Positions 2,196-18,936 of a stretch of 20,000 nucleotides of DNA are shown here, in pieces. This stretch comes from an uncultured virus (IMG/VR IMGVR_UViG_3300023108_000018) (Duplodnaviria > Heunggongvirae > Uroviricota > Caudoviricetes): IMG/VR virus record IMGVR_UViG_3300023108_000018; one strand, given 5' to 3'. The position numbers were made by a program, and so were the translations under genes. How positions within the stretch are numbered: the first letter of the stretch is position 1; each line of letters begins with the position of its first letter. The notes under the pieces are model-generated. The model was not told the DNA's origin. It did not search any database and saw nothing but the letters and a program-made list of their open reading frames with translations.

Positions 2196-4166
2196 TTAAA
2201 CTGCAAGTTGGATTGAAACTAATCCACTATTTGGTGCATCTGTAAACTGTATGATCTGATTTTCGACATCGATTGTGTATAGACTAGGGTCAATTAATTT
2301 ATTACGAATAAAAACATCGACATTATTTGCAGTCATCGTTCCACCACCCTGCACATTGAAGTCTGTTTGACCGTCATCTGCAAATTCTCTGTCCTCTCCA
2401 AACACTGAAATAAACTTTCCTGCTTCAGGTGGAGTACTAAACACTATGTTACCACTACTTTCAGTGAAACCACCACTTTGTCTTACACCATCTATAAACA
2501 CGTATGTATTACTACCACTTCCTGCGATTGGGAATGTATCTCTTACACCATCTGTTTCAAATGCGTTTTCTGTTGGTTCAGTATCATCATTATTAGTAGG
2601 TCTAGGTATTTTAGGTTTTTTCAGACTTGAATTTACTACTCCATCTATACTTGAAAGGGAAAGACCAATCGTTAGAGGTAAGAAACCAATTAACTCTAAG
2701 AAATCACAGAAAGTTAAGAAGAGTACATCAAATATTTTACCTAATCCAATCTTATCTAAAAACTTCTTAATCTTTTTAACCCATAAGAAAAGAACTCTCT
2801 TGTACCAGTTTACTTTAAATTTTTCTAATGCAATCATCATATCTGCAATTTCTTCTTCAAGTGATTGTGCAGTTGATTCTATTTCTGCACCTATGATTTC
2901 TCTTACAGTAAAACCAAAAATAGATAAACCTAAAATTTTATCTCGTATCATTTGTTGGAACTTTCTTTGTTCGTCCATTATTTGATCTTCTAATTCTTTA
3001 CGTCCTTCTAAAAGAATCTCTCTCGCAGCCACATCACTTTTATAGGGTTCTTCTTCTAGTAACTTATCAATTTCATCGATTTGTAATTGAATACCCAGTC
3101 TAGTTTTCTTAAACTCCTCTTTAATAATCTCTGTGACTCCATGAACCATTTCAGGAATATCCATTGATAATATGTCTGCAAGTTCACTGAAAGGTAAATC
3201 AGGTAATCCTAATAAATCCCATATTTCATCAAACAGGTCTATAAGTTTTTCAAATGCTTTAACGTGCCAGTTATTCAACCAATCTTCAATTTCAGTTTGT
3301 ATACACTGGAATGCTAACTGCGCTTTCGCTTCTACATCTAAAACACCATACTCTCCGTCAAATTGTCTACATGTGGAAGGTAAGAATGAGAATAGTTTAT
3401 CAACCAATTGTGTTCTTAAATTTTCCTTGGTTAAAATATCACTTTCGATTCTTTCAATCTCTGCCTTTATTGCCTCTTCTTCTGCCTCTGTATATGCAAT
3501 AGGGTCGTCTTTTAATTTACGTAGTTCTTCATGTTGATTTTCGATTTCACCTCTTAATCCCTGAATCTCTTTAACGATTTCACTTCCCATTATCTGTGCT
3601 TCAATTTCTTTTTTATAGTTTGGTGAAGTGATAATTGCAATAATGTCTATAGATATTCCATAAACATTAATTGTAAAATTGATAGGGACAAATTTACTGA
3701 TGAACTCTGCAATTTTTGCTGGAACGTATACGTGGAATTCTGCGAGGAATTTAGTTACTGCCTGATTCGCTTCTTGTTGCCAGTTTCTTTTTTGTCCGTC
3801 TTTTTGCCAGTAAGGTGAAAGAAGTTCCTCAATTTTCTCTTTAACCTTTTCAACTTCTTCTACCATCTCTTCAATCTCTTCTTCCAATGCAGTGAGGACA
3901 GGATAGATTGATGATTCTAATGCATTAATCTCTTCAATTATAGCATCCTTTTCTTCCTTTGTCAAATTTGGGTCATTTAATCTGTCCCAAAGTTCTTTTA
4001 TTTCTTTTTCCTTTTCTGCCTTTTCTTCTAAGAATGCGGCTCTCAACTTCATTGGTAAAGAACCAATTGAATTCAATGCATTAACTATTTCTGCTTTAGA
4101 TGGAAGGTCAAAGATGTCCCCTTCAGGACATACTATTGCTGTAGGAATCTCAATATTAATGGACAT
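2196..4166 (-). CDS. Hypothetical 656-aa virion-associated protein (helical/coiled-coil body, hydrophobic segment, two C-terminal beta-rich repeats)
   Basis: Long ORF between gp5 and gp25 with acidic coiled coils. C-terminal ~120 aa holds two copies of a DG..xF..........V.V...G......(Y/F)T......I.F...P..G..(V/I)S motif seen in phage structural and fibre proteins. Confidence 0.75.
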   Translation of the reverse strand: MSINIEIPTAIVCPEGDIFDLPSKAEIVNALNSIGSLPMKLRAAFLEEKAEKEKEIKELWDRLNDPNLTKEEKDAIIEEINALESSIYPVLTALEEEIEEMVEEVEKVKEKIEELLSPYWQKDGQKRNWQQEANQAVTKFLAEFHVYVPAKIAEFISKFVPINFTINVYGISIDIIAIITSPNYKKEIEAQIMGSEIVKEIQGLRGEIENQHEELRKLKDDPIAYTEAEEEAIKAEIERIESDILTKENLRTQLVDKLFSFLPSTCRQFDGEYGVLDVEAKAQLAFQCIQTEIEDWLNNWHVKAFEKLIDLFDEIWDLLGLPDLPFSELADILSMDIPEMVHGVTEIIKEEFKKTRLGIQLQIDEIDKLLEEEPYKSDVAAREILLEGRKELEDQIMDEQRKFQQMIRDKILGLSIFGFTVREIIGAEIESTAQSLEEEIADMMIALEKFKVNWYKRVLFLWVKKIKKFLDKIGLGKIFDVLFLTFCDFLELIGFLPLTIGLSLSSIDGVVNSSLKKPKIPRPTNNDDTEPTENAFETDGVRDTFPIAGSGSNTYVFIDGVRQSGGFTESSGNIVFSTPPEAGKFISVFGEDREFADDGQTDFNVQGGGTMTANNVDVFIRNKLIDPSLYTIDVENQIIQFTDAPNSGLVSIQLAV

Positions 4167-8504: not shown

Positions 8505-8512
8505 TATAAATA
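8505..8512 (+). promoter_or_regulatory. T4 late (gp55-type) promoter TATAAATA upstream of gp4
   Basis: Exact TATAAATA in the 43-nt divergent gap, 25 nt before the gp4 ATG. Confidence 0.8.
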
Positions 8513-8532: not shown

Positions 8533-8540
8533 TATTTATG
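8533..8540 (-). promoter_or_regulatory. Late promoter variant CATAAATA driving the gp48 baseplate operon
   Basis: Reverse complement of TATTTATG, overlapping the gp4 start codon and facing gp48. Confidence 0.6.
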
Positions 8541-11134: not shown

Positions 11135-11142
11135 TATAAATA
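11135..11142 (+). promoter_or_regulatory. T4 late promoter TATAAATA upstream of gp2
   Basis: Exact TATAAATA directly after the upstream stop and 7 nt before the gp2 ATG. Confidence 0.8.
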
Positions 11143-13261: not shown

Positions 13262-13446
13262 TAGCTCTTTCTCATGAAACTTTGGTCAATTATTATGAGA
13301 CCAATTTTCAGATGATGCAACATCATAAGTACAGTCTTACAGAGTTGGACAATATGATGCCATGGGAAAGAGAGGTCTACATTAGACTCTTGATGAACTA
13401 TCTTGAAGAAGAGAAGTTGAGACAAGAGAATTCTCGTAGAAGGTAA
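13252..13446 (+). CDS. gp51: Baseplate hub assembly catalyst gp51 (open in the -1 frame relative to gp26; first ATG at 13312)
   Basis: Not in the ORF track. Manual translation FFLIALSHETLVNYYETNFQMMQHHKYSLTELDNMMPWEREVYIRLLMNYLEEEKLRQENSRRR* contains the gp51 signature (NYY.TNF..MQHHKYSLTELDNMMPWERE.Y). Confidence 0.9.
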   Translation, partial: FFLIALSHETLVNYYETNFQMMQHHKYSLTELDNMMPWEREVYIRLLMNYLEEEKLRQENSRRR

Positions 13447-13495
13447 ATTTTTATTATGTGTACGTGAGAAGTTTAATTAAAATTGAGGACACATA

Positions 13496-15995: not shown

Positions 15996-16219
15996 TTACC
16001 ATCCCAATTCAAATCAGTTAATTCACGTTGTTTATCTTTAAAGTCCTTGCGACTATATTTGGACTTGTCTCTGTGAACTTGAGTTTTACCATGCTCAGGG
16101 GTTTCCTTTCTAACTTTAACATCAACCTTTTTGCCAAAGATTTTATCAAAGTTATCCCTATAAGCTTCTTCGTTTGAATTCCGTCTCTTAGAACCTTTAC
16201 CGCCGTGCCAGTTAGACAT
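15992..16219 (-). CDS. Small basic hypothetical protein (75 aa)
   Basis: Starts 2 nt after the rpsU stop; its stop overlaps the tape-measure stop (TTAA). Contains GKGSKRR and VHRDKSKYSRK motifs. Confidence 0.75.
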   Translation of the reverse strand: MSNWHGGKGSKRRNSNEEAYRDNFDKIFGKKVDVKVRKETPEHGKTQVHRDKSKYSRKDFKDKQRELTDLNWDGN

Positions 16220-16221
16220 GA

Positions 16222-16455
16222 TTAAATCCTTCTGTAACCTTTCTGTTCTGCTCTCTTAGCGTCTAGTTTCTTTCTACGTTTGATTTGTTGATTTCTTTCG
16301 TTACGTTTTTCGTTAGGTTTAATATAATATTCCCTAGAACGAACTTCCTGTACTATTCCTGCACGATCACAGGCTTTCTTGAATCTACGTAACATCCTGT
16401 CGAAGGGCTCAACATTTTTTGATTTCGGATGTTTTTTTGGACTTACACTTGGCAT
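16222..16455 (-). CDS. rpsU: Ribosomal protein bS21
   Basis: MP...[36 protein letters not shown] aligns with proteobacterial bS21 ([32 protein letters not shown]). Confidence 0.95.
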
Positions 16456-16461
16456 AGTTAT

Positions 16462-16491
16462 ATTATATAAAAAAAGTTCCTACTTTGTCTA
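16462..16491 (-). promoter_or_regulatory. Sigma70-like promoter for rpsU: TAGACA-18 nt-TATAAT, 6 nt before the ATG
   Basis: -35 TAGACA at 16491-16486 and a perfect -10 TATAAT at 16467-16462; no SD between the -10 and the ATG. Confidence 0.7.
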
Positions 16492-16501
16492 GGTGGTTTT
16501 T

Positions 16502-16550
16502 AAAAAAAAGTGTGTATTCGCCCCTCGCCTTACAGCAACCCGCTATACAC
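16502..16550 (-). terminator. Possible intrinsic terminator closing the gp32 transcript/structured RNA
   Basis: Minus strand GTGTAT...ATACAC stem (large internal region) followed by AC and a U8 tract at 16509-16502. Confidence 0.5.
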
Positions 16551-16670
16551 CGATGAATCCGCTGTTACACCATTCACCTTTCCCTTACTGAGTACCCCCA
16601 TTTTTATCCACGGTCTCAGTGAGTATGGAAGACTATCACGGACACTCATAATATTATCTTCCATCCCCTA
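16502..16670 (-). ncRNA. Putative structured non-coding RNA of unknown family
   Basis: Non-coding and GC-richer than its surroundings, with four consecutive stems, possible loop-loop/pseudoknot pairings and a terminal U-tract. Confidence 0.55.
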
Positions 16671-16679
16671 AGTCAAGAC

Positions 16680-17591
16680 TTACGATTCAGTCGCAAGTCT
16701 CTTGAAGTAATCCATCGCATCATCACCTTCTTCGACACTATTACTTGAAGTTGAATCTGCTGATGAGATTACAGGTTCATCTGCAGTACCTTCTGTGTTA
16801 ACATTAGACCAAGGCACTTCGTCAAGGTCTTCTGCAACTGATTCTGCAGTTGATGTTGTGGTTACTCCACCTGAGAGACCTAACACTCTGTCAAGTTTCT
16901 CTTTGAGTTCTTCATAAGATTTGAACTCGTTAGGTGCAATAATCTCAGACAATGAATTAACTGAAGTATATATGTCGTTCAGTTGATTTTCATCATCAAA
17001 AAGTGGTGCAGGTGTCTCGAACTCTGACTTATCATAGTTCCAGTAACCATCTACTTTTCTGATTTTGATTTTGAAGTTTGCACCTTCTCCTCTCAAGTCA
17101 AAAGGATTGATTGCAGCCTCGTCCTCAAATGCAGGACTGATTGCCTCTTTCAACTGTTCAAAGATTTTTTTCCCATAACGATAAAGGAAGACTTTACCTT
17201 CGTTGTCAGGATTTTTAGGGTCTGAAACAACATAGATGTTAGACACATAGTGTAAACGTCTTTTCTGTTTACGTGCCTGTTCTTTGTTTGCTTCGATTCC
17301 AGTGTTCCACAACTGAGTGTTGTATTCACTGACAGGGTCTTGTTTACCAAGAGTCGTTAAAGACTTCTCGATATACCATCCACCTGGCCCTTGAAATCCG
17401 TGATCCCAGTATGAGACCCAAGGCATTTCTTCTCCTTCAGGGGTAGGTAAGAAACGAATGATTGCGAAACCATTACCTGATTTATCAAGTTCAGGTTTCC
17501 AAAATCTATCGTCGGAATAGGACTTTTTTTCTCCTCCTGTTTGGGGAGTAGCGGATTCCATAGCCGCTCTGAGTTTTTCTAAAGATGACAT
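16680..17591 (-). CDS. gp32: Single-stranded DNA-binding protein gp32
   Basis: DDRFWKPELDKSGNGFAIIRFLP...WDHGFQGPGGWYIEKSLTTLGKQDPVSEYN...RKQKRRLHYVSNIYVVSDP..P.NEGKVFLYRYGKKIF...GANFKIKIRKVDGYWNYDKSEF; acidic tail. Confidence 0.98.
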   Translation of the reverse strand: MSSLEKLRAAMESATPQTGGEKKSYSDDRFWKPELDKSGNGFAIIRFLPTPEGEEMPWVSYWDHGFQGPGGWYIEKSLTTLGKQDPVSEYNTQLWNTGIEANKEQARKQKRRLHYVSNIYVVSDPKNPDNEGKVFLYRYGKKIFEQLKEAISPAFEDEAAINPFDLRGEGANFKIKIRKVDGYWNYDKSEFETPAPLFDDENQLNDIYTSVNSLSEIIAPNEFKSYEELKEKLDRVLGLSGGVTTTSTAESVAEDLDEVPWSNVNTEGTADEPVISSADSTSSNSVEEGDDAMDYFKRLATES

Positions 17592-17621
17592 TGTATTCTC
17601 CTATTGTATTAGCATTGTATT
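17590..17621 (-). repeat. Three direct repeats of AATACAAT around the gp32 SD and start codon
   Basis: Minus strand gcAATACAATgctAATACAATaggagAATACAATG (forward ATTGTATT at 17590, 17603 and 17614). Confidence 0.85.
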
Positions 17622-17644
17622 GCATCTTATCTATTATATTAAGA

Positions 17645-18355
17645 CTAAAGATCAAACCCTTGACCTAAAGTCCACGTATCACTACTTTCATAGTAATTAA
17701 GTTTATTATACTCTACCAGTTCTAACTTGTCTAGGGAGTTTTTGAAATAAACCTTAGATTCGTTATACTCCTTTAAGAGTGCAATAAACTGAGAACGTTG
17801 TGCATCAAACACTCTATCCTCTAGTGTATATTTAGTCTGATAAAATTCCTGACCTTCATATACATTCGACACATCACCATATTGTAATGCATCAAAACCT
17901 AACAGTGTAATCTCTTCTCTTCCCTGTTCCATTGCATATCCTAATGCACTCATTCCAGTAAAAAGGTTCTTGAGATTTAAAAAATTATATATAACTATGT
18001 TATCCTGATAACTGCTGCTATAGCCCAATAAATCAGTTTCGTATTCATTCCCCATAACCACAAATCTGTCGTGTTCGATTTCGTCGACGTGGTCGTTTAT
18101 TTTCTGTTGTCCTACACCCAGTCCTAACTTCAATCCATGGAAGTATTCAATCTCTAATGGTTCCCATCCTCCGACTGCGACTTTGTGTTCTTTATAGTAT
18201 TGTTTATTAAATATGTCTACCTGTTGAGGAATGTCCATACAGAACAATATATCAGGTATCGAATCTTTAAAGATTTGATTACAACCCCACCATTCTTCCA
18301 GTGAGTCTAAATCATATTTTAATCTACTAGGGCCATTACCAACTATTGTGAGCAT
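17645..18355 (-). CDS. GT42/GT29/Maf (DUF115)-like glycosyltransferase-fold protein
   Basis: TIVGNGPS...WWGCNQIF...PDILFCMD...FTGMSALGYAMEQGREEITLLGFD mirrors the GNGPS / CNQ / TSG..A..A...G..EI.L.G.D motifs of CstII-like sialyltransferases and Maf/MptE-like proteins. Confidence 0.65.
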   Translation of the reverse strand: MLTIVGNGPSRLKYDLDSLEEWWGCNQIFKDSIPDILFCMDIPQQVDIFNKQYYKEHKVAVGGWEPLEIEYFHGLKLGLGVGQQKINDHVDEIEHDRFVVMGNEYETDLLGYSSSYQDNIVIYNFLNLKNLFTGMSALGYAMEQGREEITLLGFDALQYGDVSNVYEGQEFYQTKYTLEDRVFDAQRSQFIALLKEYNESKVYFKNSLDKLELVEYNKLNYYESSDTWTLGQGFDL

Positions 18356-18936
18356 AATTCAATTAGTTTCCTCTTGTACTTATCGTGATCGAATTGTACA
18401 AATGATCTATACTTATTAATCTTAATTGATATTTCAGGATAGACAACGGTCTCTGATATAAGTCTGTCCCAGTCTTTTGTGAATTCAATAATCTCATCCA
18501 TAATACAAAGTGTCTCTAAACTTATTTCCTTTCGCATGTATGCTTTAAGTAAACGAGGATGTTGACCGTTTGTAACTTTCAGTAGTGTATCTATTTTAAA
18601 CTTTCTCAATTGATCTGACACTTCAGTTTCAAATAGGTAGAAGAGTTTTTGATTTCTTTTCTTCCAGTCCTTATACACTCTATCTGCATCTTCATTTAGA
18701 AGATCACCTGCCCATTGATCTTTAATGGACAAGTTTGCAATATAAAAATCTTGCAGTTCGTTCTTATACGTTTTAAACAATTTACCAAAGTGGTATTTGT
18801 CTTTACGTTTGAGAAAGGATTTGATGTCTGCTTTTACTTTACCGTTGTACTTAATAAAGTTATAATCCTTGGAAGTGAAGTGTAACTTAATCCCAAGGTA
18901 TAACGTATATGCATCATATCCTTCTCGACTCGTCAT
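18343..18936 (-). CDS. gp59: Helicase loader gp59
   Basis: GYDAYTLYLGIKLHFTSKDYNFIKYNGKVKA...SFLKRKDKYHFGKL...FYIANL...W...L; NGQHPRLLKAY...ISLETLCI. Confidence 0.92.
   Translation of the reverse strand: MTSREGYDAYTLYLGIKLHFTSKDYNFIKYNGKVKADIKSFLKRKDKYHFGKLFKTYKNELQDFYIANLSIKDQWAGDLLNEDADRVYKDWKKRNQKLFYLFETEVSDQLRKFKIDTLLKVTNGQHPRLLKAYMRKEISLETLCIMDEIIEFTKDWDRLISETVVYPEISIKINKYRSFVQFDHDKYKRKLIELCSQ

Follow-up and report, generated by a model that had tools for sequence, protein, structure and literature searches.

RNA structures are attached to gp32, the single-stranded DNA-binding protein gene, in other phages of the T4 type as well. The translational operator of T4 gene 32 is a 5' pseudoknot. 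Bacterial small RNAs derived from 3' untranslated regions, for instance CpxQ and SroC, end in a terminator and carry short antisense seeds with little conserved structure. Pelagimyophage-like T4-type phages are among the most abundant marine viruses. Here we analyse a stretch of 20,000 nucleotides (nt), called the window throughout, from the uncultured virus IMGVR_UViG_3300023108_000018 of IMG/VR. It comes from an uncultured marine T4-like myophage that carries an RNA of ~180 bases directly 3' of gp32. This RNA represents an undescribed phage RNA family that is structured and non-coding, lies on the gp32-sense strand and ends in a terminator-like stem followed by a U-tract.

Fremin et al. 2023 (PMC10690425) reported 12 candidate RNAs upstream of GP32 and, in the text and the one table compared, describe none downstream; that table, which gives the genes within 25 bp downstream of the candidates, contains no S21. 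The element may nevertheless coincide with one of the 10,006 unnamed candidates of that study. Zaragoza-Solas et al. 2020 (PMC7029224) state, in the part of the article consulted, that a scanner found no riboswitches in pelagimyophages. Literature searches on gp32, S21 and pelagiphages, on structured RNAs of viruses and phages, and on small or noncoding RNAs of pelagimyophages returned no account of the element. At the gathering threshold Rfam 15 (4227 models) gave no match in the window; a permissive scan of positions 16400-16760 returned a best E-value of 1.8, far below gathering, and at 10 homologous loci no match overlapped the element. ARAGORN identified no tRNA or tmRNA gene in the window. 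These searches bear out an earlier reading of the window made from its letters only (the sequence-only reading), which had been unable to assign the region to a known family. Being unrelated to any Rfam 15 model, the RNA is new at the level of RNA families; its mechanism may be ordinary.

Relatives and covariation

The element occupies a 224-nt gap between gp32 and the gene for ribosomal protein S21 on the minus strand of the window. The sequence-only reading had singled out this gap as the only large one and as clearly GC-richer than its surroundings. The first point is roughly right, as the sole other gap of comparable size (13262-13495) holds an open reading frame (ORF) of 54 amino acids (13282-13446, plus strand) and is therefore probably coding. 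The second holds modestly (GC 0.445 vs 0.35-0.42 in the flanks), and more striking is the excess of G over C, at 30% vs 14% in both of the subtypes described below. Folding of the window RNA as a single sequence gave -56.3 kcal/mol (z = -1.87), and 10 of 200 shuffles were equally stable. Since this fold is unremarkable, the case for the RNA rests on its relatives.

A gp32-based scan of IMG/VR yielded 80 loci. In 44 of them gp32 is 73-100% identical to that of the window, and the distance from gp32 to S21 is 179-248 nt, or ~1060-1076 nt where one gene is inserted; blastn of the window gap aligned to 43 of these 44 loci with 70-99% identity. A structure-blind MAFFT alignment of 39 distinct relatives (A1) revealed invariant blocks alternating with variable segments that change pairwise. 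From A1, RNAalifold recovered three hairpins (P2, P3 and P4) unaided, with double changes in 18 of 24 pairs. Once a further hairpin, P1, had been added by hand, P2 to P4 were 96-99% paired with compensatory changes, vs 34-42% with slid partners.

A covariance model of the element (R1) found a full-length match in 88 of the 89 loci searched, each with an E-value of at most 4.3e-24, and the only miss, L112, was a chance pattern match lacking gp32. The model-fitted alignment of 65 distinct sequences, which we call group A, had 97.3% of cells paired over 33 pairs, with compensatory changes in 27 of them, including nine of nine in P1. Over 37 pairs the corresponding figures were 96.7% paired and 28 changed on both sides, with slid controls at 32-46%. 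Because the alignment was fitted to the model and the sequences are related, these figures lean toward structure. None of 500 shuffles matched the observed percentage of pairing or the covariation score, and when mutual information with average product correction was computed for all column pairs, the top 20 fell exclusively within P1 to P4. The sequence-only reading had seen more structure here than a terminator needs, possibly a new noncoding RNA or 3' element, and this suggestion has gained from the comparison: with four covarying helices in two subtypes, the alignments show what is evidently a selected RNA fold. The strand can be told from the G-U pairs, which occur in 34, 34 and 54 of the 65 sequences at columns 144/207, 28/67 and 227/239, respectively. 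Many of these would be A-C mismatches on the other strand, placing the RNA on the gp32-sense strand.

A strict sequence pattern recovered at least 120 IMG/VR contigs of one subtype. A pattern run on bacterial and archaeal genomes gave 40 matches and no cellular homologue; 39 of the 40 were chance matches to a pattern segment alone (model positions ~140-168). The remaining match is full length and lies on a contig of 121,087 bases filed under a Sphingobacteriales metagenome-assembled genome (MAG; L206). As this contig also carries a gp32 that is 84% identical, a methylase gene and S21 besides the full RNA (E = 7.9e-39), it almost certainly stems from a phage and was misplaced in the bacterial MAG.

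Architecture and a second subtype

Members of the family are ~175-190 nt long, and the first three bases of the RNA model are the gp32 stop codon TAA (16682-16680). The parts of the window copy and the neighbouring genes are given in Table 1. All four stems of the sequence-only reading, including the outer part of P4 (GTGTAT/ATACAC), are present with covariation in relatives, and its purine linker and T8 tract stand in the sequence as described. Its other pairings fared worse. A palindrome over the gp32 stop (TAAGTC-TT-GACTTA) is not conserved in the alignment of relatives. For the proposed TGAGT/ACTCA pseudoknot and the CCGTG kissing pair, the loop letters vary among relatives and mutual information gives no signal. 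ACAGCGG and TTGCTGT do not covary; the latter segment, which the second subtype lacks, instead belongs to a mini-hairpin, P4a, within the P4 loop.

Table 1. Coordinates of the structured RNA, its parts and its surroundings in the window
Feature	Position	Strand	Basis
Whole structured RNA	16503..16682	-	Covariance-model match, positions 1-182, 169.7 bits, E 4.3e-40; same place in virus record G001
5' GGGG tract, immediately ahead of P1	16665..16668	-	GGG here in 64/65 group A, 31/31 group B
P1 hairpin, ATGGAAGA/TCTTCCAT	16625..16664 (16664-16657 with 16632-16625)	-	9/9 pairs compensatory, 92.9% paired
P2 hairpin, ACUGAGACC / GGU-A-CUCAGU, bulged A	16587..16620 (16620-16612 with 16596-16587)	-	100% and 95.4% paired; 6/9 pairs covary
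J2/3 purine linker AAGGGAAA	16579..16586	-	GGG in 65/65
P3 hairpin, GGUGAAU/AUUCAUC	16552..16578 (16578-16572 with 16558-16552)	-	99.1% paired, 6/7 pairs covary
P4, GU-GUAU-A-GC ... GC-GA-AUAC-AC	16512..16550	-	99.2% paired, 6/8 pairs covary
U8 tract, terminator-like 3' end, after P4 + AC	16502..16509	-	Sequence
gp32, single-stranded DNA-binding protein gene	16680..17591	-	Pfam PF08804, E 3.4e-38
Ribosomal protein S21 gene, next downstream in the window, not in all relatives	16222..16455	-	Pfam PF01165, E 9e-14
Promoter-like TAGACA-17-TATAAT upstream of gp32, likely start of the element-carrying transcript	17705..17733	-	Motif match
Promoter-like TAGACA-18-TATAAT between element and S21	16462..16491	-	Motif match
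Gene without name between gp59-like loader and gp32	17645-18355	-	
gp59-like loader gene	18343-18936	-	

P4 has a conserved bulged A in its 3' strand and folds alone at -14.6 kcal/mol. Its loop reads GGG-U-[P4a]-A-GGG, in which P4a (UGCU-GUAA-GGCG, 16537-16526) is a GUAA-capped mini-hairpin that is 91.5% paired with weak covariation (closing pair U-G in 36 sequences, U-A in 25 and A-U in 3). Together P4, AC and U8 form a stable stem running directly into a U-tract, as in an intrinsic terminator, and at least four T's lie within 7 nt after P4 in 60 of the 65 group A relatives. A simple terminator scanner missed P4 because the loop exceeds 8 nt.

The unpaired positions are dominated by invariant G-tracts: GGG(G) at the 5' end, GUGGA..UGGGG in the P2 loop (GUGGA...UGGG in the window), AAGGGAAAG in J2/3, GCGG in the P3 loop, CGG between P3 and P4 (where the spacer is a single G in the window) and GGG on both sides of the P4 loop. 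All 65 sequences of group A and all 31 of group B (the second subtype) have GCGG at the 3' end of the P3 loop. Four tracts of at least three G's (5' end, P2 loop and two in the P4 loop) occur in 62-65 of the 65 group A and all 31 group B sequences, which is the sequence signature of an RNA G-quadruplex. The window RNA has five GGA motifs and group B ~6 conserved ones, outside the canonical CsrA loop context. One tertiary contact is a candidate: A16586, the first base of J2/3, may pair with U16534, as columns 135/230 are A-U in 61 sequences, U-A in 3 (one clade) and C-G in 1, a lead that comprises two events only. In a natural variant, L008 (3381-3527), P2 to P4 are kept, whereas P1 is missing along with both the GGGG of the 5' end and the GGGGG of the P2 loop. 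Either this copy is decaying, or the joint loss hints that these two G-tracts cooperate.

The 24-nt loop of P1 contains near-invariant AUUAUG and GUGUC, the latter as GUGUCC in most members. In 18 of 63 relatives this loop (window 16647-16636 region) reads ATG TGT CCK TGA, a three-codon mini-ORF (MCP), and a -10-like YATWAT just before the mini-ORF site matches at four or more of six positions in 59 of 63. The window also has a 44-amino-acid ORF (16530-16664) that starts six codons before the conserved P1-loop ATG, in the same frame, and ends at the TAA of GCUGUAA. Among 63 sequences, the distance from the conserved ATG to this TAA is 0, 1 and 2 modulo 3 in 14, 25 and 24 cases, ORFs from the conserved ATG range from 2 to 52 amino acids, and a Pfam scan of the window ORF gave no match. 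We rejected a small-protein gene on these grounds, as neither frame nor length is conserved and Pfam is empty.

Loci whose gp32 is ~58% identical gave weak R1 matches (E about 0.03) at the same place, and a pattern built from these loci recovered 48 IMG/VR stretches. They make up group B, represented by 31 distinct full-length sequences in an alignment made by MAFFT only (A3). With the RNAalifold structure of A3, 93.4% of cells are paired and 22 of 39 pairs show compensatory changes. Both subtypes share, in order, 5' GGG, P1 with loop GUGUC, GUGG(G)A and UGGGG in the first half, and A-G-GGAAAG, P3 with GCGG, CGG and P4 with GC-GGG...GGG-GC plus the bulged A in the second. In subtype B the P1 loop is short, one more hairpin is present, UGGGG makes a hairpin loop of 4 nt and P4a is missing; in A3, GGA follows nearly every G-tract. 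Pairing of P1-loop GUGU with a 3' ACAC was considered and rejected, since the 3' letters vary in group B while GUGUC is invariant. All 31 group B sequences carry an unchanged TTATAAATA in the interval from the gp32 stop to the RNA, and we take it to be a T4-type late-promoter box.

Transcription, gene context and possible roles

Among the sequencing runs listed, 20 contained at least half of the sampled words of 16150-17700, and 13 of these are on record as RNA. Four RNA runs were mapped as exact assembled metatranscriptome contigs, whose depth cannot rank genes or show ends; stretches without contig cover in some runs, such as that below 16503 in X14, carry no weight here. Contigs bridging the gp32 stop span 16436-16854 in X1 (depth 27.7) and 16524-16910 in X2 and X3 (37.8 and 54.2, respectively), and X14 has contigs at 16520-16634 (23.5) and 16605-17691 (12.1). 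The element is thus present in RNA libraries and contiguous with the 3' end of gp32. Within the limit that contig depth cannot rank genes, depth was 2.3-2.7 over S21 and 13.9-25.1 over the gp32 body, and the 3'-terminal contig had ~2x the depth of gp32-body contigs in three runs. Such a contrast, ten- to twenty-fold over less than 2 kb of one genome, does not look like carry-over of DNA and agrees with an RNA 3' end at P4/U8, for which contig depth is a weak hint. The X2 and X3 contigs stop at 16524, in the 3' G-tract of the P4 loop, one X14 contig starts at 16520, and the X2 contig carries 24 extra letters at its 16524 end that are presumably Illumina adapter, suggesting that fragment ends pile up at this position.

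In the window, TAGACA N17-18 TATAAT occurs twice vs 0.01 expected, and the motif is probably an early or middle promoter type of the phage. From these two sites, one upstream of gp32 and one between the element and S21, it would follow that the element is the 3' end of a gp32 unit and that S21 is transcribed from a separate promoter. The window has just two TATAAATA boxes (8505-8512 and 11135-11142, both plus strand), which lie 26 and 8 nt before gene starts at 8538 and 11150, placed as expected of T4-type late promoters. The gp32 5' leader (17592-17644, minus strand) is AU-rich with repeated AAUACAAU, which we take to recall the unstructured operator of T4 gene 32; no pyrimidine-rich partner for the G-tracts was seen in it.

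What follows the RNA varies. In the 88 group A loci the next gene is S21 in 60 and an N6/N4 DNA methylase followed by S21 in 25, while three end there. The methylase gene (PF01555, E = 1.5e-23) was observed at 3575-4462 of L014 and in 24 other group A loci, starting 2-11 nt past the element. Behind group B RNAs lies either a gene in convergent orientation, its stop directly adjoining the RNA (L049), or a DUF7230-like gene (L054); in the window, a DUF7230-like gene and then a convergent gene of 698 amino acids lie beyond S21. Upstream, by comparison, pattern scans blind to gp32 found this gene ending just before the RNA in 48 of 49 loci (L112-L160) and in 47 of the 48 group B stretches, the two exceptions being chance matches. 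Because the downstream genes differ while gp32 stays upstream, the RNA is tied to gp32 and not to S21. In loci of the L049 type, the predicted late promoter would drive only the RNA, since the gene behind it is convergent.

We favour, with confidence about evenly balanced, the reading that the RNA is a product in its own right, whose invariant purine loops engage a partner that is most likely a protein. In the window phage it would form the 3'-terminal part of the gp32 transcript, and in the second subtype it would also be transcribed from its own T4-type late promoter, ending in either case at P4 and the U-tract. Most likely the hairpins would scaffold a non-Watson-Crick purine core or a multi-site surface, as there is no conserved pyrimidine tract to pair with the G-tracts and G is twice as frequent as C. 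Such a surface would bind the partner, with the RNA serving as a stable decoy or scaffold rather than as a leader for the gene behind it.

Several observations weigh against this reading. The evidence for RNA ends consists of assembled contigs, and the shuffle controls overstate significance because the sequences are related. Only base composition and conservation speak for a G-rich core and for protein binding. In group B the U-tract is not clean, with at least five T's in the 8 nt after P4 in only 13 of 31 sequences. In group A an own promoter is not evident; the -10-like box of the P1 loop is accompanied by a -35 box (at least four of six positions) in 20 of 63 relatives only. Finally, the next start codon lies 2-27 nt past the element in most group A loci, leaving no room for a promoter before S21 or the methylase.

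This last point agrees at least equally well with a cis-acting attenuator or riboswitch, in which P1 to P3 and their loops would sense a signal and P4 with the U-tract would set read-through into the S21, methylase or DUF7230 gene. Genes starting so close to the element would depend on read-through, and the TAGACA..TATAAT insert before S21 is confined to seven loci with a spacer of 45-47 nt, the window included. The far lower contig depth over S21 than over gp32 and the element points weakly the same way, and aptamers that bind ligands typically have such invariant unpaired nucleotides in their loops and junctions. However, one functional class of gene would be expected behind a riboswitch or leader, and what is found is S21, a methylase or a DUF7230-like gene, which are functionally unrelated, or a convergent gene. 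L049 has no same-strand gene at all behind the RNA, and the group B late promoter would drive nothing but the RNA. In addition, the P4 loop is among the most conserved parts, unlike the usual expression platforms, and no helix encloses the four hairpins into a junction. We therefore consider attenuation possible though unlikely.

A purely cis-acting 3' end of the gp32 message seems rather unlikely too, whether as an elaborate terminator and stabiliser that shields this highly expressed message against 3' exonucleases or as a site where gp32 binds for autoregulation; in neither form would the RNA have a separate role. It would explain the strict adjacency to the gp32 stop in two subtypes whose gp32 proteins are only ~58% identical, the contigs that join gp32 and the element, and, weakly, the doubled depth of the 3'-terminal contig; in other clades this place is taken by a plain terminator hairpin or by a different conserved element. 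Yet a stabiliser needs neither invariant loops nor four separate covarying helices, simple hairpins suffice in the cultured phages HTVC008M and Melnitz, and the group B late promoter would yield the RNA without gp32.

We also considered a more specific form of the purine core, which we think quite unlikely: the four hairpins may bring together the G-tracts at the 5' end, in the P2 loop and on either side of the P4 loop, forming an inter-domain G-quadruplex or purine core that would act as an aptamer or be the active site of a new self-cleaving RNA that cuts in the P4 loop. If true, the RNA would be a natural phage aptamer, binding a small molecule or a host protein in the late phase of infection, for instance as a decoy against a host defence or regulator. 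Self-cleavage or processing by a ribozyme cutting inside the P4 loop, as might be read from the contig boundaries at 16524 and 16520, the adapter-like letters and the size and conserved unpaired nucleotides of the RNA, is very unlikely, given that contig stops are at most a weak hint, that the X1 contig continues to 16436, that cutting at 16524 would deprive P4 of its covarying 3' strand, and that no self-cleaving class in Rfam resembles the RNA. An element acting at the DNA level (an origin, or a signal for recombination or packaging) or a small protein gene, for which one could cite the location in the replication gene block (gp59, gp32), the ORF with its ATG and a sigma-70-like TTGACT-17-TATTAT (10/12 match) overlapping P1 in the window, is largely refuted, since the frequent G-U pairs would turn into A-C mismatches if a cruciform formed or if the opposite strand were the one that folds, the reading frame drifts among relatives and the -35 box of the sigma-70-like site is not conserved.

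Comparison with known systems

The unusual make-up of the RNA, with its excess of G over C and an invariant G-tract in each loop and linker, hints that its fold or its partner has no counterpart among catalogued bacterial RNAs. For RNA biologists the family is a new class to probe. Phage biologists gain a marker and, linked to a core replication gene, a function that may be regulatory or directed against the host.

Among cultured phages, Melnitz (54.5% identity) and HTVC008M (53.8%) have the most similar gp32. Neither the group A gap nor a group B element had a blastn match among cultured phages, and R1 run with filters off on HTVC008M and Melnitz gave a best E-value of 0.99, indicating that the RNA is not there. 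In these two and in other marine T4-like phages the same slot is filled by a hairpin and a T-run, and the terminators of the HTVC008M and Melnitz type are single GC-rich hairpins, unlike the four-hairpin element. The clade of marine T4-like phages to which Melnitz, a cultured Methylophilales phage, belongs has another conserved element in the stretch from the gp32 stop to the terminator (L057, L058, L059, L066, L072 and L202, the last being Melnitz, 3377-3510), which reads AAGGTATAC..ATATCCTT..GTGCAG..ACACCACA..AGACTAG. From this distinct element of a second clade, the gp32 3' region seems to be a recurrent slot for structured RNA.

The T4 gene 32 operator and the GP32 candidates of PMC10690425 are likewise RNA structures attached to gp32 of T4-like phages, but they lie 5' of the gene whereas our element lies 3'. 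Like the small RNAs of the CpxQ and SroC type, it sits at the 3' end of an mRNA and shares the terminator hairpin and U-tract of that mRNA, and its own promoter is possible, as the group B late-promoter box suggests. Unlike them, it has four covarying helices, invariant G-rich loops and no obvious target. It resembles riboswitches with terminator platforms in its conserved unpaired nucleotides, its final stem with U's and, in most group A loci, the gene right after it, and departs from them in having no consistent class of downstream gene, no enclosing junction helix and no match to an Rfam riboswitch; in the group B locus L049 a same-strand downstream gene is absent altogether. Protein-sponge RNAs of the CsrB and RsmZ type present several GGA motifs in loops and linkers and then a terminator. 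The element shares this layout, with several GGA-containing loops and linkers ahead of its terminator, although its GGA motifs lie outside the A(N)GGA hairpin-loop setting usual in those RNAs and it matches no CsrB or Rsm model of Rfam.

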